Below are positions 10,208 through 53,147 of a stretch of 64,000 nt of DNA, one piece after another (position 1 is the first letter of the stretch; each line of letters begins with the position of its first letter). The translations under genes and the position numbers were made by a program. The stretch comes from an uncultured Thermoleophilaceae bacterium (GTDB lineage Bacteria; Actinomycetota; Thermoleophilia; Solirubrobacterales; Thermoleophilaceae): the NCBI GenBank assembly GCA_963734025.1, contig CAVTFR010000012.1, forward strand, positions 1,924-65,923, read 5' to 3'. The notes below the pieces were generated by a model, which was not told the origin of the DNA, made no database searches, and worked only from the letters and a program-made list of their open reading frames with translations.

Positions 10208-10528
10208 CTAGCGGGATTCGCTCTCGAGCCGCGTGAGGTACTTGTGCTCCCGGCACCAGGGCCGGCAGTAGTTCTGATCCTTACGGACCGGCGTGAACCT
10301 CTGGCCGCATGTGCGGCACGTGCGTTCAGGGAGGGGGTCGCGACGGCGGGCGGCGTTCAAGCGCTCACCGTGACGCTGCCGGTACTGCCGCTTGGCGAGT
10401 GCGAAGCAGTCGCGGCACCACCAGGTCCGCCCATCCGGAGACGCTCGGCGTCTTGCGAAAGCGTCAAGCGGCTTAGTCTCGCCGCACCTTGTACAGCGCT
10501 TCTCCGCCACCAGAGCGAAGTGTTCCAC
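10208..10528 (-). CDS. Cys-rich double zinc-ribbon protein (paralogue 1, intact)
   Basis: ORF 10208..10528. Motifs are KRCTRCGETKPLDAF...DGRTWWCRDC, then ERTCRTCGQRFTPVRKDQNYCRPWCREHKY. The first motif resembles the N-terminal ribbon of actinophage HNH-type proteins. A GGTCCTACAGGACC palindrome lies immediately 3' of the stop. Confidence 0.6.
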   Translation of the reverse strand: MEHFALVAEKRCTRCGETKPLDAFARRRASPDGRTWWCRDCFALAKRQYRQRHGERLNAARRRDPLPERTCRTCGQRFTPVRKDQNYCRPWCREHKYLTRLESESR

Positions 10529-10783: not shown

Positions 10784-11443
10784 TCAGGCCATCAGGGCTG
10801 CGGAGTCGACCTCGCCGGCGGCCTCGGGCGCCTGCACGCCGAAGAGCAGCTCGAGGTATTGGCGCAGGTGCGCGAGCTGGGCGCGCAGCGCGGTCGCGTC
10901 CTTTGTGGCGCGCGCGAGGATGAAGCCGCCCTCGAAGATGGTGAAGACCTGGTCGGCGAGCGACGGCAGGTCCACCTCGGCCGCCGGCGGGTGCGTCCGT
11001 GTGGCCGCCTCGAGCTTCGCGAGCAGGCGCGCGCGCCAGAGGCCGATCGAGTGGGCGATCAGGGCGTCGCTGTCCTCGCCGGCGAGCTCCCGCTCGTAGA
11101 TGAACGAGACGAAGAGGCAGCCGGGCTGGAGCTGCGGCAGATCGCCGGCCGCGACCTCGAACAGCCGGGCGAAGGCGACGACCTGCTCGGCAGGGTCATC
11201 AGCGATCCGCTCGGCCTCGGCCATGAACCAGTCGAGCGTGCGCGCGTCGGCGGCGGCGTAGCGCTCGAGCAGCGCGCGGCCGAGCGCGTTCTTGGAGCGG
11301 AAGTGGTGAAAGAACGCGCCTTTCGTCATTCCCGCCTCGGCGAGCACAGCGTCGACGCTCGTGGCGGCAAACCCGCGGTCGAGCACGAGCCGCTGGGCGG
11401 CGTTGAGCAGCTTCTCGCGCGTCGCGGTTCCGTCTCGAGGCAT
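10784..11443 (-). CDS. TetR family transcriptional regulator
   Basis: ORF 10784..11443, with the N-terminal HTH TREKLLNAAQRLVLDRGFAATSVDAVLAEAGMTKGAFFHHF. Confidence 0.85.
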   Translation of the reverse strand: MPRDGTATREKLLNAAQRLVLDRGFAATSVDAVLAEAGMTKGAFFHHFRSKNALGRALLERYAAADARTLDWFMAEAERIADDPAEQVVAFARLFEVAAGDLPQLQPGCLFVSFIYERELAGEDSDALIAHSIGLWRARLLAKLEAATRTHPPAAEVDLPSLADQVFTIFEGGFILARATKDATALRAQLAHLRQYLELLFGVQAPEAAGEVDSAALMA

Positions 11444-11466
11444 GTGTGCACGATATCACGTTACAT

Positions 11467-11480
11467 ACCGACTAGTCGGT
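11467..11480. promoter_or_regulatory. candidate TetR operator (perfect 14-bp palindrome ACCGACTAGTCGGT)
   Basis: Lies in the 53-bp divergent intergenic region between the TetR gene (start 11443) and the SemiSWEET gene (start 11497). Confidence 0.45.
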
Positions 11481-11496
11481 CTGGTATAACTCTCGC

Positions 11497-11802
11497 GTGA
11501 TGCTCGATCCCGTCCTCCTCGGCACCATCGCCACCTGCTACGGCTTATGCGGCGCGCTCTCCGCGCTGTGCCAGGCGCGCCAGATCCGGCGGCGGGGCAG
11601 CTCCTGCGACGTGTCGGCCCGCTTCTTCGCGATGTACGCCGGCGGGTATGCGATCTGGCTGATATACGGCGCGAGCATCGGCAGCGTGCCGCTGATCCTC
11701 GTCGATGCCGCCGGTCTAATCTGCGGCGGCATCACGCTCGCGGTGACGCTCAGCATGCGCGGCTCGCTCGCCCGGCCCCGCAGCTGGGGCCACTGCGCCT
11801 GA
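11497..11802 (+). CDS. SemiSWEET / PQ-loop family small transporter
   Basis: ORF 11497..11802 (GTG start), about 100 aa with three TM segments. LSALCQARQIRRRGSSCDVSARFFAMYAGGYAIWLIYG matches the PQ-loop pattern, with CQ in place of PQ. Confidence 0.6.
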   Translation: MMLDPVLLGTIATCYGLCGALSALCQARQIRRRGSSCDVSARFFAMYAGGYAIWLIYGASIGSVPLILVDAAGLICGGITLAVTLSMRGSLARPRSWGHCA

Positions 11803-11863: not shown

Positions 11864-12026
11864 TTGGACGACAGACAGGTGTCACGCGCGCGCGAGGCTG
11901 CGCTTTCGTTTTGCCCTGCCTAAGCGGGCGTGTTCGAGCGGGCCACTCAGACGCTCGCGCGTCGTCCAAAGCGGGCACCAGATCAGCGGCGACGCTGGCT
12001 CCCGCTCGCCGAGGTAAAGCAGGCGC
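11864..12026. repeat. left copy of a 163-bp inverted repeat pair
   Basis: It is the reverse complement of 13890..14052. The outer 104 bp (11864-11967) are identical, and I counted 7 mismatches in the inner 59 bp. Confidence 0.85.
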
Positions 12027-12086
12027 TCGGCGTCCCGCTATTGGCGAGCGGCAGGTGCACGGCAGTTCTTCCGTGCATCGGAGGTC

Positions 12087-12950
12087 TCAGGCCGTCACCG
12101 CGCCACCGAGCCGCTGGAAGCCGCCGGTGACCCAATCGACGATGAGACGGCCGTACTCGTCGGGCGCTTGCTCCCACGCAAAGTGGCCGGCATCCAATGG
12201 GTGGATCTCGCTGTTGGGCAGCAGGTCGGCGAGGTACTCGTTGTTGGACCACGGCACCAAGTCGTCTTCGCGTCCGGCGATGATCTGAGCCGGCGTGGTG
12301 ATCGTGGGCAACAGGCCGCGCAGCACCGGGTTCTGCTCGGGGTAGTGGCGGACAAAGCGAGCGGACTCGGCAAAGCGCCCGAGGTCGTACGCGCTGACGT
12401 AGTCCTCATGGACGTCGGGCTCGCTGTCGGCACCGGCCGCGGGCTCGACGGCGAACCCGATGTTGGTTCGGGCATCCAGCTGTCGGACGACGTCGAGGCT
12501 CGGGGCCTCGATGACATCCTTGAGCGCGCCGCCGGCCTCGATGGGAGCACGCACCGCGCCTCCACCGATGGTCAAGCTCGTGACGCGGTCTGGAGCGTTG
12601 GCCGCCAAGAACAACGCGGCGGCGGTGCCCACGTCCGGACCGACCACGTGCGGCGCGCCCAGGCCCCATTCCTCGATGAGGCGCGCAAGGAACGTGCCCA
12701 TCGCATCCGGTGCGATCAGCTCCGGGCGACCGTCTGAGTGGCCAAAGCCCGGCAGGTCGATCGCGACCACGCGCGCCGCCCCCGACACTCGGTCCCAGAT
12801 CCCTCGGAACGCCCAGAGGCTTTCCGGCCACGGGCTCAACATCAACACGGTCACTGCCGACGAGTCCGCTCTGTTGTCAGCAAACCGAATCCGCACCCCG
12901 TCGCAGACTCGAAAGAGCGGAGCGATGGGCGAATACCCTGCTGTATTCAT
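12087..12950 (-). CDS. alpha/beta hydrolase (Asp-nucleophile type, GPDVG)
   Basis: ORF 12087..12983. The ATG at 12950 is preceded by GGAGG with an 8-nt spacer. LPGFGHSD and VVGPDVGTAAAL (Asp at the nucleophile elbow, as in dehalogenase/epoxide-hydrolase-type enzymes). C-terminal DAGHFAWEQ. Confidence 0.8.
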   Translation of the reverse strand: MNTAGYSPIAPLFRVCDGVRIRFADNRADSSAVTVLMLSPWPESLWAFRGIWDRVSGAARVVAIDLPGFGHSDGRPELIAPDAMGTFLARLIEEWGLGAPHVVGPDVGTAAALFLAANAPDRVTSLTIGGGAVRAPIEAGGALKDVIEAPSLDVVRQLDARTNIGFAVEPAAGADSEPDVHEDYVSAYDLGRFAESARFVRHYPEQNPVLRGLLPTITTPAQIIAGREDDLVPWSNNEYLADLLPNSEIHPLDAGHFAWEQAPDEYGRLIVDWVTGGFQRLGGAVTA

Positions 12951-13029
12951 CGTTGTTGCCTCCGGATCGCTTTCCTCGCTCACTGGTGCGCTCCTTTGGG
13001 TGCTGAATCGATCGGGTTGAAGAGCAGCC

Positions 13030-13045
13030 GATGACGACTGTCATC
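13030..13045. promoter_or_regulatory. candidate TetR operator 1 (GATGACGACTGTCATC)
   Basis: Palindrome with 6-bp arms in the divergent hydrolase/TetR intergenic region. A near-identical second copy lies 37 bp downstream. Confidence 0.45.
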
Positions 13046-13066
13046 CGGCGGACGATATCAGACTCC

Positions 13067-13082
13067 GATGACGACCGTCATC
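13067..13082. promoter_or_regulatory. candidate TetR operator 2 (GATGACGACCGTCATC)
   Basis: Second copy of the same palindrome, 22 nt upstream of the TetR ATG at 13104. Confidence 0.45.
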
Positions 13083-13103
13083 GCGCCCAGATAGGCTGTC
13101 CCC

Positions 13104-13736
13104 ATGGACGCCCGGCAAGAGAGGTCGCGAACGAGCGGAAGCGGCGAGCAGCAGCCGGCCCGTGACCGCATCGTGCGCAGCGCCGCGGCGCTCGTTCGCG
13201 AGCGCGGTGTTCACGGCGTCGGCCTTCGCCAGATCGTTGCCCATGCCGACGGCCCTCGCGGGTCCCTCCAGCGCTACTTCCCGGGCGGGAAGACGCAGCT
13301 CATCACCGAGGCCCTCAAACTGGTCGGCGCCGAGGTACTCGACGACACCGAGTCACGGCTCAGCGAGGCCGCCACCCTGGCCGATGCGATCGACGCAATC
13401 TTTGCCCCTTGGCGCCACGTGCTCGTCGAGAGCAACTTCACGATGGGATGTCCCCTCGCCGCGACCGTCATCGATGCCGGCGGAGATGACCGGCTACGGC
13501 AAGAGGCTCGCGCTCTCCTCGACCAGTGGCGTGACTCCGTACACGCCACCTTGGTCAAATTCGGCGTCCAGGCGTCAACCGCAGAGGACGATGCCTCCGT
13601 CCTCCTCGCAGCTCTCGAGGGCGCCCTGATCTTGAGCCGAGCAAACCAAAGCACCCAGCCACTCGACACGGTGCAGCGCTTCTTCACAACGTCGCTGACG
13701 CCGGCCGCAGCCAACCCCGCCGCTCCCGCGCCATAG
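13104..13736 (+). CDS. TetR family transcriptional regulator
   Basis: ORF 13104..13736, with the HTH ARDRIVRSAAALVRERGVHGVGLRQIVAHADGPRGSLQRYF. Confidence 0.8.
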   Translation: MDARQERSRTSGSGEQQPARDRIVRSAAALVRERGVHGVGLRQIVAHADGPRGSLQRYFPGGKTQLITEALKLVGAEVLDDTESRLSEAATLADAIDAIFAPWRHVLVESNFTMGCPLAATVIDAGGDDRLRQEARALLDQWRDSVHATLVKFGVQASTAEDDASVLLAALEGALILSRANQSTQPLDTVQRFFTTSLTPAAANPAAPAP

Positions 13737-13889
13737 CCGGGGGCAGCTAACCGGATAGCCCCTTCCGTTCCGGAGCCGAAGCCTTGCACCCGAAGGTCGG
13801 CGCCGAGATCAGTCCTGCTTTCCGCGCGGTGCGCGTCTCGCTCCGCCGGTCGCGCCGGACCTGCAACGCGGGGAAGACAGGACGAGGCG

Positions 13890-14052
13890 GCGCCTGCTTT
13901 GCCTCGGCGAGCGGAAGCCAGTGTCGCCGCTGATCTCGTGCGCGCTCCGGACGACGCGCGAGCGTCTGAGTGGCCCGCTCGAACACGCCCGCTTAGGCAG
14001 GGCAAAACGAAAGCGCAGCCTCGCGCGCGCGTGACACCTGTCTGTCGTCCAA
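13890..14052. repeat. right copy of the 163-bp inverted repeat pair
   Basis: It is the reverse complement of 11864..12026. The identical 104 bp sit at the outer end (13949-14052). Confidence 0.85.
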
Positions 14053-14234
14053 AGCAGCAGCCGGCCCGTCGCCGGGCTCGGTGTTGCTGTTACGCGAGAG
14101 GAGGCGCCGGGCGCGTTGCCGGTCGCACGCCTTCGGCTGGCGGCATCGGCGCTCTTGTCGGCCGCGTCGTTGGACCTGTCGGCCGCCTGGCATGCAGACA
14201 ACTGCCGTGCCGGCAGTACCGACTCGGCGGCGCG

Positions 14235-15800
14235 TCAGCCGCGCGCGCCCTTGGACGCCGCCGGCGCCGGCGCGAACGTCGGTGGCCTGACCGCCGCAAC
14301 GCAGGCCGTGTTCGGCGCGCTCGGTGTCGCGAGGAACGACGCGAACACCTGTTGCGCGCAGGGCGACTCGAGCGTCACGAAGTGGCCGATCCCCGCAAAG
14401 TCGGCGGCCGTCGAGTTGGGCAGCGTCCGCGCCGCTATCCGCGCCCAGCTCGTCGGCGTGATGCCGTCGAAGCTGCCCGACAGCAGCAGGGTCGGGATCG
14501 TGCTCGTCGTTGCCGCCCGCTGCTCCGCGGGCGCCTTCGGAACCGGCCACACGCGGCAGGAGGCGGGCAGGTAGCTTACGTGTAGGGCCGGCGCGAGCAC
14601 CGAGTCCGGATAGGCCGGGAACGCGCGCCGGCCGATCGACAGCACCGAGCCCTGCTCGTAGGGGACCCACTCGGCGCAGCCCACGCCGAGGGCCAGCCCG
14701 TAGCCGAGAGCCCCCGGGGGCGTGGCCAGGATCGGCGCCGCGCGCAGGCTGGCGATGTTGCGCGGGTCGCCGTCGGCGAGCTCGGCGATCCAGGTCGGAA
14801 TATCGGGGTAGTGAGGCGTGTGGAAGGCCTCGTCGATGAGCCAGTTCACGAGCGCCCCGCCGTCGAGCACCACCTTCACCGCGGAACCGCCCGTTGGCGG
14901 CGTCACCTGCGCCGCGACCGGGTGTGCCTCGAGCCGCCGGACCAGCTTCGTGAACGTCTGCTCGATCCCGGGGCGGCGCGGCCAACATTGAGGCTGGGCC
15001 GTGCACGCACGGAACAGGCGGTCGAAGCCCTCGCGGGCGTTCGGCGCGAAGCTGCCGGCGGTCACCACCTCCGGCGGCTCGACCGAGTCGATCGTCACGC
15101 TGCGGATGCCCTGCGGGTGCTGACGCATCAGCGTCATCGCGAGATTCGTGCCGTAGGAGACGCCGAACACGTTCCACTCGGCAATCCCTAGCGCCGTGCG
15201 CAGATCCGCGAAGTCAGCCGCGTTCTCGGTCGTGTTGTACGCGCCGAGGTCGACCCCCGTCGCGACCAGGCGTCGGTTGCAGGCGCGTGCCGCCGCCACG
15301 GTCAGGCGCCGGTACCGCGACCCGTCAAGCGGGAGGCCGAGGCCGCGTATGCTGGCTAGGTCGACCTCCGGGCACGTCGGCGCCGGGTTTGGCGGGGAGT
15401 AGAGCGTCCCGCGCTGGCCCATGAGAATCAGGTCTCGGTCACGGTTGAAGCCGGCGTCGATCAAGGGCTGCGCCTCGCCCAGCGGGTAGCCGCCGGGGCC
15501 GCCGGCGAGGTACACGATCGGATCGGGCGCGGGCGTTGGCGACGCCGCCGGCACGATCCCGACCGTCAGGCGAATCGTGCGCCCGTTCGCCCTGGCCCGG
15601 TTCTCGGGCACGATGAGGAAGCCGCAGCGGGCGTCCGCCGGCAGGCTGGTTGGAAAGGGCTCGGTCGGGCACGCCGTTGGCTCGAACCTCGGCGCTGGGA
15701 GAGCCGACGCCGCACCCGAGGCGGCGCCAGCGGCCGGGATGGTGAGCAGCGCCACCGCAGCGCCAACCGCTATCACCTGCACCTTGCGTACGGCGGCCAC
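14235..15800 (-). CDS. secreted alpha/beta hydrolase, S33 tripeptidyl-aminopeptidase-like
   Basis: ORF 14235..15800. Signal peptide VIAVGAAVALLTIPAAGAASG, then YLAGGPGG, the GVSYG nucleophile elbow, and a C-terminal GIGHF. Confidence 0.8.
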   Translation of the reverse strand: MAAVRKVQVIAVGAAVALLTIPAAGAASGAASALPAPRFEPTACPTEPFPTSLPADARCGFLIVPENRARANGRTIRLTVGIVPAASPTPAPDPIVYLAGGPGGYPLGEAQPLIDAGFNRDRDLILMGQRGTLYSPPNPAPTCPEVDLASIRGLGLPLDGSRYRRLTVAAARACNRRLVATGVDLGAYNTTENAADFADLRTALGIAEWNVFGVSYGTNLAMTLMRQHPQGIRSVTIDSVEPPEVVTAGSFAPNAREGFDRLFRACTAQPQCWPRRPGIEQTFTKLVRRLEAHPVAAQVTPPTGGSAVKVVLDGGALVNWLIDEAFHTPHYPDIPTWIAELADGDPRNIASLRAAPILATPPGALGYGLALGVGCAEWVPYEQGSVLSIGRRAFPAYPDSVLAPALHVSYLPASCRVWPVPKAPAEQRAATTSTIPTLLLSGSFDGITPTSWARIAARTLPNSTAADFAGIGHFVTLESPCAQQVFASFLATPSAPNTACVAAVRPPTFAPAPAASKGARG

Positions 15801-16099
15801 GAAGGACCCCGTAGTCGACGAGTTCGTGCGAGTCCTTTCCAGCTACCGGTGGGCCCCAGTAGCTCCGTCGAACCTAGTCGCCCGAAAACTTCAAGTCAAG
15901 GCGACACGAGCCTCGACCGCCCGTGCCGGTTGCCAACCGATCCAGCCGACGGCATAAACACCCGCCCCGCACCGCGCACGCCGCCCCTTCGGTGCAGGCC
16001 CCACGCCTCCTTCGCGCGACGAGCAACAACGGCTCCGAGTCCAAAGCCGCGCGCGCACTCCTGCTTTCTCTTTGAAGGAGGGCCGGCTGTCAAGGTGGC

Positions 16100-17320
16100 G
16101 GGGCCCGGTTTTGGGTGCTCCCGGTTGGGTGGAGCGGGGTGCTCATTTCTCTTTCGGCGCTGGTTGCGCAGATTGTTCGTAGGAGCTGTCTCGGCTTCTC
16201 AATTCCATGCGGGGCCGTCAGGCGGCCAGAAAGCAGCTGGAGCTTGCCGAGACGTCGGTGCCGCTCGTCTGTGGGCGGGCCGGTTTGAAGGGTTGTTGGC
16301 GGTTGAGGATGTGCCAGCAGGCGATCAGGATCTTGCGTGCGACGGCGGACTTGGCGGGGTTCTTGCCGGCGCGCTTGGCAATGTCGCTGTAGAGGTGGTG
16401 CCAGGGGTTGGTCGGTCGCCAGGCGGCGTGGGCGGCCTCGACCGCCGCCCAGCGCAGCGTGCGTGATCCCGCCTTTGAGAGCGCGCCGGTGTGTGCGCGC
16501 TCGCCGGACTGGTGGACGCGCGGCGCGAGCTCGGCGTAGCCGATCAGCTTGCGTGGCGTCGCGAAGCGGGCGATGTCGCCGATCTCGCTGGCCAAGGTCA
16601 GGCCGAGCAGGTCACCGACGCCGGGGATCGTCTTGAGCAGCACGACGCGCGCGTCGACGGCGGCCGCCTGGCGCAGCTCGCGTTCGAGTGGTGCAACGCG
16701 CTCGTCGAGCAAGTCGATCACCGCCAGCGCCTCGGCGACCGACCGTCGCCACGTCTCGTCGACGCCGCGCTCGGCGAGCAGCTCCATGCCGTCCGCTGCG
16801 CGCAGCCGCTCGAGCGAGATCCGCAGGCCCCACTGCGTCAGCAGGCCGAAGATCCGGTTCATCGCCGAGGCGCGCAACCGGACCAGGTGCATCCGCCGCC
16901 GTAGTTGCTCGCGCAACGCGCGCTCTGCCAGCGGCGGCACCCAGAGCGCCGGCACCAGCTCGCGTCGGCAGAGCTCGGCCAGCACGCGCGCGTCGACCTT
17001 GTCGGTCTTGCACGCCAGCGGCGCGACATCGCGGACCTTGCCCGCGTGCGCGACCTGCACATCCCAGCCGGCCGCCGCCAGCCGATCGCGCACCCAGACC
17101 GCGCCGCTCATCATCTCCACACAGGCCCGAACGTCGACACCCAAGCGGAGCACGAGCCGCGCCAGCCCGTCCTCGTCCGCCGCCACGACACCCTCGTCGG
17201 CGGTCGCGCCGCTCTCCGACAACGCACACCACGACGCCCGTCGATACGCCCAATCGATCCCGTGCGCTAGCGGGATCCACCCTCGAGCCGGGTGAGGTAC
17301 TTGTGCTCCCGGCACCACGG
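16100..17320 (-). mobile_element. IS110-family insertion sequence (ends approximate)
   Basis: Contains the DEDD transposase ORF. The upstream boundary lies at or within a few nt of the stop codon (17267-17269) of zinc-ribbon paralogue 2. About 120 nt of non-coding sequence lies 3' of the transposase stop. No terminal inverted repeats were seen, as expected for this family. Confidence 0.7.
16218..17318 (-). CDS. IS110-family DEDD transposase
   Basis: ORF 16218..17318. Motifs are HGIDWAYRRASWC, ACKTDKVDARVLAEL, TIPGVGDLLGLTLASEIGDIARF and SGERAHTGALSKAGSRTLR. The only in-frame canonical starts (GTG 17318 or 17315) lie inside the 3' end of the upstream gene. Confidence 0.85.
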   Translation of the reverse strand: MVPGAQVPHPARGWIPLAHGIDWAYRRASWCALSESGATADEGVVAADEDGLARLVLRLGVDVRACVEMMSGAVWVRDRLAAAGWDVQVAHAGKVRDVAPLACKTDKVDARVLAELCRRELVPALWVPPLAERALREQLRRRMHLVRLRASAMNRIFGLLTQWGLRISLERLRAADGMELLAERGVDETWRRSVAEALAVIDLLDERVAPLERELRQAAAVDARVVLLKTIPGVGDLLGLTLASEIGDIARFATPRKLIGYAELAPRVHQSGERAHTGALSKAGSRTLRWAAVEAAHAAWRPTNPWHHLYSDIAKRAGKNPAKSAVARKILIACWHILNRQQPFKPARPQTSGTDVSASSSCFLAA

Positions 17321-17584
17321 CCGGCAGTAGTTCTGATCCTTACGGATCGGCATGAACGGTTGGCCGCAAGTACGACATGTGCGCTCGGGAATGGGGGCGC
17401 GACGGCGGGCGGGGTTCAGGCGGTCACCGTGACGCTCCCGGTACTCCCGCTTCGCGACCGGGTGGCAGGCGCGGCACCAATAGCTTCGATCGTCCCGAGA
17501 GGCTCGCCGTACCGGAAACTCAGCAACGGGCTTGACGTCCCGCCTTTCCCGCTGCGCTTCGCGGCCATCCGGCGAGAGTGTCAC
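17267..17584 (-). CDS. Cys-rich zinc-ribbon protein (paralogue 2, first CxxC knuckle lost; possibly a pseudogene)
   Basis: ORF 17267..17584. The C-terminal two thirds are near-identical to paralogue 1 (WCRACHPVAKREYRERHGDRLNPARRRAPIPERTCRTCGQPFMPIRKDQNYCRPWCREHKYLTRLE). The N-terminus reads REAQRERRDVKPVAEF where CTRCGETKPL is expected, and an alternative frame gives KRSGKGG. Confidence 0.5.
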   Translation of the reverse strand: MTLSPDGREAQRERRDVKPVAEFPVRRASRDDRSYWCRACHPVAKREYRERHGDRLNPARRRAPIPERTCRTCGQPFMPIRKDQNYCRPWCREHKYLTRLEGGSR

Positions 17585-19443: not shown

Positions 19444-19662
19444 TTACACAGCCGCTACAAGCCGCCACACAGCCGGGCTAACGCGCGCACATCGAGGACC
19501 GAGCCAGGTTTCACCAGCTTGAGTCCCAACCTGCACATCCTCGAAGTCGTCCGCGTCGAGGAGCGCCTCGTGGAACTCCCGGCGCTGCCGGTCGTCCATC
19601 TCCGAGAGCGGCGGGTAGCCGACACCTTTCCCAACACGGCGGCTCAGCTCCGCGCTCGCCAT
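19444..19662 (-). CDS. small hypothetical protein (MASAELSRRVGKGVGYPPLSEM...EALLDADDFED)
   Basis: Inside ORF 19444..19782, with ATG at 19662. The N-terminal half resembles a small conserved actinobacterial protein, but the C-terminal third looks unrelated or degenerate. Its 5' end is repeated twice elsewhere in the window. Confidence 0.35.
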   Translation of the reverse strand: MASAELSRRVGKGVGYPPLSEMDDRQRREFHEALLDADDFEDVQVGTQAGETWLGPRCARVSPAVWRLVAAV

Positions 19663-20911: not shown

Positions 20912-21201
20912 TCAGCCCTCGATGCGAGCCAAATACCGATGCCTGCGGCACCACCGGGAGCAGTAGTTCTGGTCCGTCCGGACCTGCATGACGGCTGGCC
21001 GCATGTGCGGCACGTCCGTTCGGGAATGGGGTCGCGACGGCGGGCGGCGTTCAGGCGCTCGCGATGGCGTTGCCGGTACTCCCGGTTCGCCACTGCGTGA
21101 CAGGCGCGCCAGCCGCTCGGATCGTCCGTAGAGGCTCAGCTGACCGGAAACTCGTTGAGGGGCTTGACATCACCGCACTTCCCGCAGCGTTTGTGTGTCA
21201 T
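20912..21201 (-). pseudogene. Cys-rich zinc-ribbon protein (paralogue 3): in-frame stop plus frameshift
   Basis: MTHKRCGKCGDVKPLNEFPVS is followed by TGA. The sequence continues ASTDDPSGWRACHAVANREYRQRHRERLNAARRRDPIPERTCRTCGQP. A 1-nt shift is then needed to read VMQVRTDQNYCSRWCRRHRYLARIEG, ending at the stop at 20912-20914. Confidence 0.6.
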
Positions 21202-25009: not shown

Positions 25010-25855
25010 ATGTGTCGTGTGCTTGGCGTCAACCGCACCTCGTTCCACGATTGGGAGCGCCGGCCGCCGTCCGACCGGGCGCTGGCAGACGCCTGGCTGA
25101 GCGAGAAGATCAAGCAGATCCACCGCGACAGCCGGGGCGTGTACGGCGCGCCTCGGATCCACGCCGAGCTGCGGCTCGAGCACGGGATCCGTGTTGGTCG
25201 CAAGCGCGTCGCCCGGTTGATGAAAGCCGCCGGTATCTCAGGGATCAGGCCGCGCAAGCGGTGGCGGACCACGATCCGCGTGCCCGGCGTCGAGCCCGCG
25301 ACGGACCTCGTCGAGCGCGACTTCCGACGCGACGGGCCGAACGTGCTGTGGGTGGCGGACATCACCTACTTGCGGAGCGGGGAAGGGTGGCTCTACCTGG
25401 CCGCGGTGCAGGACACGTACTCGCGGGCGATCGTCGGCTGGTCGATGGCCACCCACATGCGCTCGGCGCTCGTCGTCGATGCGCTCCGGATGGCGCTCGC
25501 ACGCCGGCGCCCCGGGCCCGGGCTGACCCATCACTCCGATCAGGGCTCGCAGTACGTGAGCCTCGCCTTCGGCCGCGCCGCGCGCCAGGCCGGGATCGCG
25601 ATCTCGATGGGCTCCCGCGGCGACGCCTACGACAACGCGGTCGCCGAGACGTTCTTCGCCACGCTCAAGAAAGAGCTCGTCAACCGCCGCACGTGGCCAT
25701 CCCGACACGAGCTCCAGTCCGCGGTGTTCGAGTACATCGAGGCCTTCTACAACCGCCAGCGCCGCCACTCCACGCTCGGCATGGTCTCCCCGGCTGAGTA
25801 CGAGCAGACCCAGACAACCACGACATCAAGCAAAATCAAACAACCAACTACCTAA
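25010..25855 (+). CDS. IS3-family transposase OrfB (DDE integrase core)
   Basis: ORF 25010..25855, in the -1 frame relative to orfA. That frame is open upstream of 25010 (AFSFIAAEKTNYPVAAMCRVLG), consistent with OrfAB fusion by programmed frameshift. The only A-run candidate for slippage is at 24914-24917. Motifs are WVADITY, HSDQGSQY and YDNAVAETFF. Confidence 0.85.
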   Translation: MCRVLGVNRTSFHDWERRPPSDRALADAWLSEKIKQIHRDSRGVYGAPRIHAELRLEHGIRVGRKRVARLMKAAGISGIRPRKRWRTTIRVPGVEPATDLVERDFRRDGPNVLWVADITYLRSGEGWLYLAAVQDTYSRAIVGWSMATHMRSALVVDALRMALARRRPGPGLTHHSDQGSQYVSLAFGRAARQAGIAISMGSRGDAYDNAVAETFFATLKKELVNRRTWPSRHELQSAVFEYIEAFYNRQRRHSTLGMVSPAEYEQTQTTTTSSKIKQPTT

Positions 25856-25977
25856 CAACCCCGTGTCATCCGAACCGGGGCAGGTCCACCGGGTCAGATC
25901 GCGCTCGTGCTGTCAGGCGAAAGCGATAGTGAGCCGGGCTGGGTTTCGCGGAGACCGGATTGGTTGGGTCCCTCTGT

Positions 25978-26864
25978 TCATGTGAGGGAGATTTCCAAGG
26001 TACTGGGCTGGCTCAGCCTTTCGAACTCAGACGGTGGGAGGTCGTCGAGCGCCTGGTGGAGGCGGGTGTCGTTGAACCAGCCGATGTACTCGACGACGGC
26101 GAGCTCGAGCTGGGCGCGTGAGCGCCAGACGCGATCGCAGATCAGCTCGGTCTTGAAGCTGTCGACGAAGCTCTCTGCGAGCGCGTTGTCGTAGGCGTCG
26201 CCGACCGACCCGACCGAGGCGAGCACACCGTGATCGGCCAGGGTCTGGGTGTAATCGATCGACGTGTATTGACTGCCGCGATCGCTGTGATGCACCAAGG
26301 CGACGTCGGCGCCGGGCCCGCGCTGCCAGAGCGCCATCCGCAGTGCGTCGAGGACCAAGGTGGTGCGCATGTGGGCGGCGAGCTGCCAGCCCACCACCTT
26401 GCGGCTGTAGGCGTCGAGCACGAACGCGAAGAACACCAGCCCCTCCCAGCAACGCAGATAGGACAAGTCGGCGACCCAAAGCAGGTTCGGCCCGCCGGCG
26501 GTGAAGTTGCGCTCGACAAGGTCGGGCCGGCGCGACGCCTCGGGATTGGACCGGGTGCTGCGCCACGGCTTGCCCCTGCGCTTGGCGCCCTGGATGCCGT
26601 GGGTTCGCATCAGCCGCTTGACCCGGTCGCGACCGACCTGCACGCCCTCCCGCCGAAGCGCTTTCCAGCTGCGCCGGTAGCCGTAGGCGTGATAGTTGGC
26701 CGCCTGCAGCCGCTCGATCCTTCGAGCAGCCGCTCGTCCTCGACCCGACGCGCCGAGCGCGCGCCGGTCTTGCGCTGGTAGTAGGCGGACGCCGACACGC
26801 CCAAGGTCCGGCAGATCGGCTCAACCCCGAAACGGCCGCGGTGCTCATCGATATACGCGGTCAC
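25978..26864 (-). pseudogene. IS3-family transposase OrfB with an extra (non-programmed) frameshift
   Basis: ORF 26610..26864 (TAYIDEHRGRFGVEPICRTLGVSASAYYQRK...VEDERLLE) must shift by 1 nt near 26715. It then joins ORF 25978..26643 and its upstream open frame (RIERLQAANYHAYGYRRSWKALRREGVQVGRDRV...WVADLSY...HSDRGSQY...YDNALAESF). Confidence 0.75.
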
Positions 26865-27163
26865 TTCGGACGGTCTGGGTCGAGCTCGCGCGCGAAAAAC
26901 AACGACGCCGACTTCAAGATCTCGTTCGCGCGGCGCAGCTCATAGTTCTCCTTGCGCAGCCGCCGGATCTCCTCGCGCTCCTGACTGGCCAACAGATCCG
27001 GACGCTTGCCACTGTCGGCCTCGAACTGGCGCACCCTCTTGCGCAACGTCTCGGGGTGCATGCCGAGATCAGCAGCGATGTGAGCGATCGGCCGCTCCGA
27101 CTCCATCGCCAACCTAATCCCGCGCTGAATCAGCTCATCGGGATACTTCTTCGGACGTGCCAT
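26861..27163 (-). CDS. IS3-family transposase OrfA
   Basis: Inside ORF 26861..27220, ATG at 27163 (MARPKKYPDELIQRGIRLAMESERPIAHIAADLGMHPETLRKRV...ELRRANEILKSASLFFARE). A T5 run (AAAAA on the plus strand, 26895-26899) near the end is a candidate slippery site. Confidence 0.8.
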   Translation of the reverse strand: MARPKKYPDELIQRGIRLAMESERPIAHIAADLGMHPETLRKRVRQFEADSGKRPDLLASQEREEIRRLRKENYELRRANEILKSASLFFARELDPDRPK

Positions 27164-27772
27164 AGCCGCGGAGCGTCTCCTCTCCCGAGGACAGAATCCT
27201 CGAAACGAGATCTCCGTCAAACCCAGCCTGGCTCAGGCAGGTAAGGCAGACAGGGTTGGGTGCAAGGCAAGGCAATGAGCTGGGTTGTGGAGCTGTTGGG
27301 ACGGTGTGGGGGGAAGAGTTGGATGTGTGCGGTTCGGTAGGCGGGGTCGGGTGGCGTGAGCGGGGCGGGTTAGGCGGATAGCGGTGATGTAGCCCGGGTT
27401 GCGTTTGGTGGGCGGGGACTGTTGCGCCGTCAGGGGGCCATCTTTGCGTTTGCGCCCTCTCTCATACAGAACCATGTTCTTGACGTCCGCCAGCTCCAGC
27501 GCCTGCTCTGGCTCGGTGCCGCACCCGGCGCGCTGTACCCCTTGGCCCGGTGCCGCGACACGGAGCTGCGCCGGCGTCACGGTCGCGCGGCCGGCGCACC
27601 GCCGGCGTGGGCAGCGCCTACCGCCCGCCGCAACTCGGGGGGCCAAAACGACGCCCAGGCCGTCCTCACAAGTAGAAGCCATGCAACCGCCCGCCGCCCA
27701 GCCGGCCCATCCCAAGCCTCCCTCGCTCGCAGGTACCACCGCCCGTGCGCAGCGCCCGGGTCTCGGCGCGAC

Positions 27773-29347: not shown

Positions 29348-29441
29348 AAAACGGGCCCTTTCTGGGGTCGAGAGGGGCCGCCTGGGGCCGAGCGACGCCA
29401 CCCAAACGGCCCGCAAACTTCCTGCAAATCAAGCACTTCTA

Positions 29442-29530
29442 CGGAGGGGGAGGGATTCGAACCCTCGGTGGACCGTAAGGCCCACAACGGTTTTCGAGAC
29501 CGCCCCGTTCAACCGCTCCGGCACCCCTCC
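29442..29530 (-). tRNA. tRNA-Ser (anticodon CGA)
   Basis: The minus strand reads GGAGGGG-TG-CCGGAGCGGTTGAACGG..., with the anticodon stem-loop CGGTC-TCGAAAA-CCGTT (CGA centred). It has a long variable arm GTGGGCCTTACGGTCCAC, a T arm GAGGG-TTCGAAT-CCCTC, and acceptor 3' strand CCCCTCC plus discriminator G. CCA is not encoded. Confidence 0.9.
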
Positions 29531-29603
29531 GGGGCGTCAATCGTAGAGGGCGCGCGCGGCCCGGCGGCGCTCAGCTGCCCGGGTAAACGCGGACGCGCCG
29601 CCA

Positions 29604-52322: not shown

Positions 52323-53147
52323 TTAGGCGCGCAGCTCCGGCGCGGTCTCGCCGAGTGCCGCGATGAACCCAAGCGGGTCGTCGTCCGGAAGCGAGAAGAT
52401 CAGCGCATCGAAGCGGAGCCGCCCGGCGAGGTCCGCGACGCGGTCCGCGTCGGGGCCGTCGCCGGCGCTCCCGAGCCCGACGTTGAGTGCCCGGACGATG
52501 TCCGCAGGATCTCGGCCCGCCGCGCGGGCGGCCTCGTCGATCACCTCGTGGCGAGCAGAGATCTCCCCTTCGGGGAGGTTGCCGAGGCTCAGCAGCCAGC
52601 CGTCCCCGAGCCGCCCGGTCAGGCGCAGCATCCGCGGCCGGTAGGCGCCGACCCAGAGCCCGATCCGGTGGACCGGCGCCGGCCCCGGCTTGGCCCCAGC
52701 GGCCCGGTAGTAGCGGCCGTCGAGCCGAACCGACTCCTCCATGTCGAGATAGGAGCGAATGATCCTCATCGCCTCCTCGAGCGCATCCACCGACTCGCCG
52801 GGCGACCGGCGCGGTCCGCCCATCGCCTCGACGGCGTCCCAGAAGGCCCCCGCCCCAAGGCCGAGCTCAACCCGGCCGCCGCTCAGGACGTCGAGCGAGG
52901 CGGCGGCCTTGGCGAGCACGGCGGGCTGGCGCAGCGGCAGGTTGATCACGTCAGGCAGCAGCGTGATCCGCTCCGTGCGCGCCGCGACGTACGAGAGCAG
53001 CGTCCAGGTGTCGAAGAAGCGGCGCTGGTACGGGTGGTCCTGGATACCGACGAGGTCGAGCCCGGCCCGGTCGGCGGCCACGATTCGCTCGATCGTCTGC
53101 TCAGGGTCGCGGGCGTCCGGGACGACGAAGACGCCGAGCTTCGTCAC
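52323..53147 (-). CDS. LLM-class flavin/F420-dependent oxidoreductase
   Basis: C-terminal part of ORF 52323..54608. The GTG at 53147 overlaps the upstream stop (GTGA). VTKLGVFVVPD...VGIQDHPYQ...LSGGRVELGLGAGAFWD. Confidence 0.75.
   Translation of the reverse strand: MTKLGVFVVPDARDPEQTIERIVAADRAGLDLVGIQDHPYQRRFFDTWTLLSYVAARTERITLLPDVINLPLRQPAVLAKAAASLDVLSGGRVELGLGAGAFWDAVEAMGGPRRSPGESVDALEEAMRIIRSYLDMEESVRLDGRYYRAAGAKPGPAPVHRIGLWVGAYRPRMLRLTGRLGDGWLLSLGNLPEGEISARHEVIDEAARAAGRDPADIVRALNVGLGSAGDGPDADRVADLAGRLRFDALIFSLPDDDPLGFIAALGETAPELRA

Follow-up and report, generated by a model that had tools for sequence, protein, structure and literature searches.

The window analysed here (the whole 64,000-nucleotide stretch of DNA) contains a pair of divergently transcribed genes, for an alpha/beta-fold hydrolase and a TetR-family regulator, which are the only genes between two inverted sequence arms. 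The arms lie in opposite orientations in two convergent intergenic gaps, one on either side of the gene pair. A SemiSWEET-like gene ends 61 nt before the left arm and a TAP-like hydrolase gene ends 182 nt before the right arm, each in the same orientation as the arm that it precedes. The features are as follows.

11497..11802, + strand: SemiSWEET-like membrane protein gene (Pfam MtN3_slv)
11864..11969, + strand: left arm, conserved core of the dispersed repeat (TTGGACGAC...GTCGTCCAA); positions 1-104 equal the right-arm core
11970..12026, + strand: left arm, variable tail; five of the seven arm mismatches fall here
12065..13713, no strand assigned: module common to relatives at 90-95% nucleotide identity (blastn of the window against loci L001-L005)
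12087..12983, - strand, probable ATG start at 12950: alpha/beta-fold hydrolase with a GPDVG elbow (Pfam Abhydrolase_1, Abhydrolase_6)
13030-13045 and 13067-13082, no strand assigned: two GATGAC-N4-GTCATC palindromes in the divergent promoter region, presumed TetR operators
13104..13736, + strand: TetR-family regulator with an LmrA/YxaF-like C-terminal domain (Pfam TetR_N, TetR_C_13_2)
13890..13946, - strand: right arm, variable tail (arm comparison)
13947..14052, - strand: right arm, conserved core of the dispersed repeat (arm comparison, nhmmer, covariance model)
14235..15800, - strand: secreted TAP-like alpha/beta hydrolase gene (Pfam Abhydrolase_4, Abhydrolase_1)

Geometry of the inverted arms

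A repeat search and direct comparison placed the arms exactly where the original prediction had put them: positions 11864-12026 and 13890-14052 are reverse complements of 163 nt each, 96% complementary and 1863 nt apart. Recomparison also returned the predicted counts. The outer 104 nt are identical, and all seven mismatches (unit positions 105, 106, 111, 116, 131, 138, and 152) fall in the inner 59 nt (unit positions 105-163), which are 88% identical between the arms; the chance of 7/7 mismatches landing in 59 of 163 positions is 6e-4. Arm similarity ends abruptly at both edges. Longer arms are ruled out, as the 100 nt past either edge align no better than shuffled sequences. No third copy of the arm was found in the 64-kb window by blastn, by nhmmer with the --max option, or by a covariance model with its filters off; the marginal covariance-model matches at 53141 and 57993 (53-57% identical) represent background.

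The TetR-hydrolase module and its relatives

Pfam and open reading frame (ORF) analysis agree with the earlier description of the segment as holding a GPDVG hydrolase gene and a divergent TetR gene. The Asp of the GPDVG elbow is the probable nucleophile, since it aligns with the nucleophile of the best solved relatives, Cif-like epoxide hydrolases and haloalkane dehalogenases. The hydrolase has 3772 homologues at E<=1e-20, and the best 120 of these 3772 are 79-97% identical to it. Exactly two copies of the palindrome lie between the genes, as had been stated, and they are the only two in the whole window, against an expectation of 0.

The hydrolase gene recurs in five other contexts at 90-95% nucleotide identity. 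In two of them (L001 and L004) it is accompanied by the TetR gene and both palindromes, while the palindromes are absent in the three without the TetR gene (L002, L003, and L005). The operators thus travel with their presumed regulator, in agreement with the proposal of a self-contained regulated module. The repeat was absent from all five of these neighbourhoods. Module homology stops short of the arms by 38 nt on the left and about 176 nt on the right, leaving window-specific spacers at 12027-12064 and 13714-13889. Judged from these comparisons, the TetR-hydrolase pair appears to be a horizontally exchanged, self-regulated module that is independent of the repeat.

A dispersed repeat with a conserved core and a variable tail

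The outer ~104-106 nt of each arm form a core of the type (T)TGGACGAC...GTCGTCC(AA). This ~106-nt core is closed by a short, 9-bp terminal inverted repeat (TTGGACGAC/GTCGTCCAA), of which 7 bp remain in both the right arm and L017; this repeat does not stand at the ends of the 163-nt unit. A search for solo copies, as had been suggested, recovered the core at four other loci on soil-metagenome contigs, with 90-97% identity (L017, 97%; L018, 91%; L021, 90%; L019/L020, 90.6%), unrelated flanks, and a sharp 5' edge in each case. These additional copies were reached by searching translated arm sequences, which matched spurious ORFs holding the core. A translated-core profile run against 1.84 billion proteins returned 18 further representatives, of which six have E<1e-10. 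Among the representatives is a diverged subfamily whose best-conserved parts are the two core ends. The dispersed copies tallied therefore comprise two in the window, those at four other DNA loci, and 18 translated traces.

Between loci, the core is 88-95% identical and the tail only 51-71%, versus ~52% for shuffled sequences; the same comparison of the two arms in the window gives 100% for the core and 88% for the tail. The tail of the window is 51-60% identical to the tails of the other loci, which is about the shuffled level, and its first ~20 nt resemble the tail of a degenerate copy at L017. The pattern of perfect outer and decaying inner ends, which had been taken as a mark of transposon ends, is better explained by this contrast between a conserved core and a fast-diverging tail, since it extends across the whole family. 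The full 163-nt unit (the core with the tail of the window) was found in this window only, in searches of GTDB, JGI, and the retrieved loci. An exact scan with a 22-nt end gave no match in GTDB representative genomes or JGI metagenome contigs, a pattern of 21 specified bases from the core hairpin gave none in JGI contigs, two core patterns gave none in IMG/VR, and blastn gave none among PLSDB plasmids and INPHARED phages.

The element is short (core 106 nt, whole 163 nt) and non-coding. Substitutions are mostly non-synonymous in every open frame, and the copy at L021 has a stop immediately after the sole candidate start. A coding role for the arm itself was rejected: all seven arm differences are non-synonymous in the sole frame with a coding-like GC pattern. 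In another open frame, three of the seven differences are synonymous.

By sequence comparison, the core of each arm belongs to a dispersed repeat family whose members occur singly in unrelated contexts, and the family is best described as a small, non-coding, previously unannotated repeat of uncultured soil Actinomycetota. Inverted pairs of copies around a gene recur, because L017, like the window, has a second copy, degenerate and inverted, across a glyoxalase gene from the first. The original prediction had offered, as one option, inverted copies of a MITE-like or structured-RNA element that captured the genes between them; the arms do fit a dispersed element, and the capture would be a further, conjectural step.

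Signs of mobility and other element classes

The absence of a target-site duplication at the outer edges was noted correctly. The left flank reads ...TATCGAG and the right flank AGCAGCAG..., with only the dinucleotide AG in common, and no duplication was found around the whole 2.19-kb unit. Six copies were checked at every plausible boundary, and none showed a consistent duplication. An adjoining direct repeat of 11-14 nt is present at L018 alone. Direct repeats 143 nt apart around the L018 and L021 copies, and the 8-nt repeat CCCGCTAT that brackets the left arm, were rejected as target duplications, being within or near the shuffle range and inconsistent in position.

Transposases of the IS110, IS3, and IS256 types occur nearby in the window and in related loci; the cassette has an IS110 transposase at a distance of 2.2 kb and IS3 copies at 11 kb. 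Among the IS110, IS3, and IS256 elements of the window and the fetched loci, none has core-like ends, so that the suggested search for a transposase with matching ends came back empty. There is no transposase between the arms, and the ORFs scanned around the cassette, some of them without a family match, yielded no identified serine or tyrosine recombinase.

Several other classes were considered and set aside. Integron attC sites have the order R''(RYYYAAC)...R'(GTTRRRY), with an integron integrase nearby; the motifs of the core stand in the reverse order, (G)TTGGAC...GTCCAA(C), and no integrase was identified. A template/variable pair of a DGR is contradicted by mismatches that are not adenine-specific and by the lack of a reverse transcriptase. 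An IscB/TnpB guide RNA or an IS110 bridge RNA was rejected in view of the lack of any Rfam match and of any likeness to IS110 ends.

Origin of the arm pair

The favoured explanation, to which a probability of roughly 0.6 is assigned, is that a TetR-hydrolase module shuffled by horizontal exchange lies between two mutually inverted copies of a new intergenic repeat of the MITE/ERIC-like kind and that the whole is not a dedicated transposon. Each arm would be one complete copy of a small non-coding element, made up of the ~106-nt core with its 9-bp closing repeat and then the fast-diverging tail, 163 nt in total in this genome. The element may have spread in the manner of MITE or ERIC sequences, as a selfish or recombination-prone repeat, and the 104 identical bases could reflect either constraint on the core or its homogenisation. 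Two insertions of one discrete element are expected to give sharp edges, and the sharpness of both 163-nt edges supports this explanation. The main consequence of the pair would be 104 bp of perfect inverted homology, which could permit RecA-dependent inversion or exchange of the 1.86-kb segment; such inversion, or composite-transposon behaviour, is possible. The lack of a consistent duplication, the lack of a matching IS in the window or the fetched loci, a terminal inverted repeat of just 9 bp, and the negative pattern scans of GTDB representative genomes, JGI contigs, and IMG/VR weigh against this explanation. So does proximity, given that the only two copies in 64 kb lie 1.9 kb apart and bracket a mobile gene pair; two random sites would fall as near to each other in ~6% of cases by chance, and such closeness around the cassette suggests that the arms may really be connected with it.

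In a rival explanation, the two outward-facing copies would be the ends of a composite or non-autonomous transposon of the MIC/IMU type, and the whole 2.19-kb unit, TetR-hydrolase cargo included, would be moved by a transposase acting in trans. The perfectly identical, inverted outer ends would suit such a unit, as would the placement of the only two copies in the window around a gene pair that is clearly horizontally exchanged, the precedent of MITE pairs in composite-like structures, and the transposases close by. The missing duplication is weak counter-evidence, because the solo copies lack duplications too. However, the arms are absent from 5/5 cassette relatives, where homology ends inside the arms, the examined IS elements do not share the ends, and the whole unit was not seen at any other locus; the transposon is thus judged unlikely, and the original reading of the arms as its terminal inverted repeats is not upheld. 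A one-off local inverted duplication of 163 nt, perhaps at the acquisition of the cassette and with later gene conversion of the outer 104 nt, would accommodate the restriction of the full unit to this window, and the polar mismatch pattern could be a conversion tract. It is nevertheless very unlikely: four other loci show the element as a discrete unit, and the outer edge of the duplication falls exactly on its 5' edge, which would have to be a coincidence, both edges are sharp, and the family-wide contrast between core and tail accounts for the polarity without conversion. The geometry of an inverted repeat around a short segment also recalls a programmed switch in which a site-specific recombinase flips the segment. 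Besides the lack of an identified recombinase among the scanned ORFs, single copies of the repeat that forms the arms occur elsewhere, and flipping would alter nothing obvious because both promoters and the operators lie within the segment, which makes a switch exceedingly improbable.

An RNA-level role is considered rather doubtful. The ~106-nt core would then be a structured RNA, either a small RNA or an element associated with a 3'-UTR or terminator, with the 9-bp terminal repeat as its P1 helix, and the arms would be two RNA genes or elements of this kind, one downstream of the SemiSWEET gene and one downstream of the TAP gene. In its favour, the closing helix coincides exactly with the conserved block and the variable part lies downstream of it, a conserved hairpin resembling a terminator, with a T-rich run behind it, is present in each arm, and the element lies downstream of a same-orientation gene in the window, at L021, at L019/L020, and in the degenerate L017 copy. 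This polarity is inconsistent, however, as the element's 5' end at L017 and L018 points towards the start of the adjacent gene. Pairing is kept in 215/222 cells on the unit strand versus 205 on the opposite strand. Among five distinct sequences, the unit strand shows one compensatory pair within the core helices, where CG has become UA in L018 and UG stands in L020, together with several changes that G-U pairing would tolerate; these changes weigh against a repeat-only reading and leave room for an RNA role. Most helix substitutions are nonetheless uncompensated, the copies are few and closely similar, and covariation support for a structured RNA is negligible. The ends of the diverged subfamily are conserved as sequence and not as pairs, the folding energy of the arms is unremarkable (z-scores of -0.8 to -1.6), and no Rfam match over the arms was obtained at the gathering score or even at E<=10.

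Relation to known repeats

REP/BIME elements are RAYT-mobilised, 20-40 nt long, and usually highly repeated. They resemble the present family as GC-rich palindromic repeats between genes, often convergent ones, but its unit is 106-163 nt long and no RAYT gene was seen. ERIC/IRU and Correia (CREE) elements are imperfect palindromic intergenic repeats of 100-155 bp in enterobacteria and Neisseria, the Correia elements having inverted repeats of 26 bp and a TA duplication. Common features are the size, an intergenic position in either orientation, ends that pair with each other, lack of coding capacity, a probably low to moderate copy number, and possible RNA-level effects, whereas the phylum is another one, the sequence is unrelated, and the present family has a variable tail on one side only. 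The MIC231-type mobile insertion cassettes of Bacillus cereus have IS231 inverted repeats as ends and target duplications flanking the unit. They share with the window the passenger genes between inverted ends and the absence of a transposase; here, in contrast, neither known-IS ends nor target duplications were found, and each arm is a free-standing element. MITE pairs flank genes in composite-like structures; examples are a 439-bp MITE of Acinetobacter that brackets class 1 integrons and MITE-297, which brackets a mer region (PMC6382973). Two short non-coding copies likewise bracket a cargo with no transposase inside, but the arms of the window lack a target-site duplication and a known parent IS, their terminal inverted repeat is 9 bp, and the cargo also occurs elsewhere without repeats.

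Implications

The analysis replaces an appealing but unsupported transposon call with a concrete, checkable object, an unannotated small repeat family from soil Actinomycetota for which metagenomes are almost the only source. Gene calling is misled by such repeats (every extra copy sat inside a spurious ORF), which also offer portable homology to inversion and gene exchange. Were the repeat linked to the gene-sized mosaicism observed here, it would point to a cassette-exchange mechanism in a phylum largely without integrons. A more far-reaching proposal, improbable at present, is that the core represents a functional element of a new class in uncultured soil Actinomycetota. It would be a structured RNA or else a non-autonomous mobile element that has one fixed end and carries variable adjacent sequence, and its inverted pairs, as in the window and around the L017 glyoxalase gene, would package single genes or gene pairs into exchangeable or flippable cassettes. 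Such packaging, if true, would explain why many genomes contain the hydrolase and TAP genes while homology does not extend past the gene itself. For the TAP gene, homology to its relatives in two MAG loci (L006 and L012) spans just 14177-15904, with no synteny beyond the gene.

Arms and the Genes Between Them

The two arms (11864–12026 and 13890–14052) are inverted copies of 163 nt, 96% complementary and separated by 1863 nt, and an independent comparison confirmed the identical outer 104 bp and seven inner mismatches described in the original prediction. Counted from the outer edge inward, all seven mismatches lie at unit positions 105, 106, 111, 116, 131, 138, and 152, which leaves the outer 104 nt identical; the probability of finding all of them within the inner 59 positions by chance is 6e-4. 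Both arm edges are sharp, the adjacent 100 nt, outward or inward, aligning only at the level of shuffled sequence. For this reason, the simplest account of the arms is that they are two copies of one discrete element.

The arms and their outer neighbors frame the following genes:

SemiSWEET-like gene, inward-pointing, ending at 11802
12087–12983, minus strand, α/β hydrolase (Pfam Abhydrolase_1 and Abhydrolase_6)
13104–13736, plus strand, TetR regulator
Secreted TAP-like hydrolase gene, inward-pointing, ending at 14235

As had been described, the inter-arm segment holds two divergent genes, a hydrolase with a GPDVG elbow and a TetR regulator, together with two palindromes. The hydrolase probably starts with the ATG at 12950. 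Among solved structures, its nearest relatives are the Cif-like epoxide hydrolases and the haloalkane dehalogenases, with whose Asp nucleophile the Asp of its elbow is aligned. Two GATGAC-N4-GTCATC palindromes occur in the window (0 expected), both in the cassette promoter region. As both outer genes point inward, each arm lies between convergent gene ends, and each is co-oriented with its outer neighbor.

A Family of Conserved Cores and Variable Tails

Further copies of the 163-bp unit were searched for, as originally proposed. No third copy was found in the window by blastn, nhmmer at maximum sensitivity, or an unfiltered covariance-model search; two marginal covariance-model matches were discarded, their 53–57% identity being background for DNA of 70% GC. 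An exact scan with the 22-nt arm end gave 0 matches in GTDB representative genomes and JGI metagenome contigs. Since gene callers would be expected to have made spurious ORFs over such copies, open-frame translations of the arms were searched against a protein collection, revealing four spurious ORFs over further core copies. The loci carrying solo cores (L017–L021) are given with their identity to the arm core:

L017, 10751–10856, minus strand, core copy, 97%
L017, ~11922–12008, plus strand, degenerate second copy
L018, 8582–8687, minus strand, core copy, 91%
L021, 867–972, minus strand, core copy, 90%
L019, 591–696, and L020, 574–679, plus strand, core copies, 90.6%

In L017, an IS256-type transposase fragment (12075–12710) lies beyond the degenerate copy.

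Aligned, the copies form a discrete block, (T)TGGACGAC...GTCGTCC(AA), with a sharp 5′ edge and unrelated flanks. This block matches the "perfect 104 bp" of the arms, and its own ends form a closing 9-bp inverted repeat. A profile of the translated block found 18 carriers (6 at E<1e-10) among 1.84 billion representative proteins, including a diverged subfamily in which both block ends are best conserved and the middle is variable.

Judged from the alignments, the element consists of a conserved core and a variable tail, because core identity between loci is 88–95%, while the next 59 nt reach 51–71% versus ~52% for shuffled sequence. In lenient alignments, tail homology extends to ~150 nt in L017, L018, and L021, and the first ~20 nt of the window tail resemble the tail of the degenerate L017 copy. 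The window arms repeat this contrast (core 100%, tail 88%). The pattern of perfect outer and decaying inner parts is thus real, but its reading as transposon-end decay is not upheld, since the contrast recurs family-wide. The differences between the arms would have accumulated where the repeat family tolerates change; a conversion tract over the core is another possible source of the perfect outer part.

The Cassette without Repeats

Hydrolase homologues number in the thousands, the best 120 listed having 79–97% identity. Five long hydrolase-encoding contigs from soil metagenome assemblies (L001–L005) were compared with the window. The 90–95% nucleotide identity starts at 12065/12091 and stops at 12949/12996, except in the two contigs that have the TetR gene as well (L001 and L004), where it runs on to 13707/13713. 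The hydrolase neighborhoods differ in 6/6 cases (the window and the five contigs). All five contigs lack a flanking inverted repeat, and searches including nhmmer found no arm copy in any of them. L001 and L004 have both palindromes and L002, L003, and L005 have neither, which places the palindromes exactly where the TetR gene is, so the proposed self-contained regulated module is real. The hydrolase/TetR pair moves independently of the repeats. In the long-read assemblies (ENA ERZ250395xx) behind L001–L005, L017, and L018, hydrolase calls are inflated (426–502 aa vs 287 aa in the window) and several neighbor genes are split, which fits frameshift errors and calls for caution with ORF-based context.

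Nature and Role of the Repeat

We file the element among the small intergenic repeats, as a new member of that class, leaving aside its mechanism of spread, on the balance of two readings. A MITE/ERIC-like repeat agrees with its small size, lack of coding capacity, dispersed copies with unrelated flanks, sequence-conserved ends, and terminal instability. However, the copies have no consistent target duplication, the terminal repeat is just 9 bp, and no IS with matching ends, as sought in the original prediction, was present among the elements examined. Alternatively, the core may have an RNA role. Among five distinct DNA copies, the helix that closes the core, a single compensatory pair (with a G-U intermediate), slightly better pairing of the unit strand, and a conserved hairpin that leads into a T-rich run point this way, whereas an Rfam match is absent, folding energies are unremarkable, helix changes occur without compensation, and polarity to neighbor genes is mixed (in L017 and L018, the element points its 5′ end toward the start of a gene).

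The 5′ terminus is prone to tandem duplication: at L017 10844–10865 an 11-nt unit (GTCTGTCGTCC, or GGACGACAGAC in element orientation) occurs twice at the element 5′ end, and protein P0126 has about nine tandem 8-residue (24 nt) repeats directly after the core (residues ~160–235).

The earlier interpretation is partly supported: the arms as MITE-like copies fit, and nothing supports gene movement by the arms. Composite mobilization of the cassette by the arm pair is possible: the two copies are suspiciously close together, with a mobile gene pair between them, solo copies likewise lack duplications, MITE pairs have been documented in composite-like structures (PMC6382973), and in L017 a glyoxalase gene (10990–11781) lies between the intact and degenerate inverted copies, though with 5′ ends inward. 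Against terminal repeats of a transposable unit with passenger genes, the outer edges share only AG (no target-site duplication, as originally noted), the cassette occurs elsewhere without arms, its homology ending 38 and ~176 nt before them, arms occur without the cassette, and the arm–cassette–arm unit was seen only once.

Perfect inverted identity over 104 bp is an adequate RecA substrate, so the 1.86-kb inter-arm segment may invert. Inversion would have little regulatory effect, since both promoters lie inside the segment; it is the sole consequence of the arm pair that follows from established recombination biology.

Mosaic Surroundings

Around the cassette, the genome is a patchwork of gene-sized imports, and IS110 and IS3 elements lie close by. 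L006 and L012, both MAGs of uncultured Actinomycetota, share the TAP-like gene with the window at ~90% nucleotide identity, over 14177–15904 only. Single-gene sharing (hydrolase, 12065–12996; TAP-like, 14177–15904) occurs at 90–95% nucleotide identity among different uncultured Actinomycetota; homology in L001–L006 and L012 breaks off no more than tens of bases from the ORF ends, and all neighborhoods differ. No mechanism behind this exchange was identified in the window or these loci. Third-position GC is lower at ~7.3–29 kb than elsewhere in the window, suggesting that this stretch is an acquired island. Other features are:

10208–10528, 17267–17584, and ~20918–21201, all minus strand, three CxxC-rich paralogues of ~105 aa (weak Stc1-like Pfam match)
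16063–17262, IS110-family "RNA-guided transposase" element (transposase ORF 16218–17318, minus strand; NCBIfam NF033542, 193 bits)
25930–27235, IS3-family element with 25-bp inverted ends (TGAGCCGGGCTGGGTTTCGCGGAGA)
29441–29531, tRNA-Ser(CGA)

The IS110 element, its extent defined by 81% homology to L003 2500–3687, directly follows the stop codon that ends the second Cys-rich copy; Rfam reported no bridge-RNA family for it. An internal stop and a frameshift mark the third Cys-rich copy as a pseudogene. A further, separate repeat of 67 nt has copies at 19607, 20148, and 21195, and the IS3 element adjoins a second IS3 OrfB (25010–25855) in opposite orientation.
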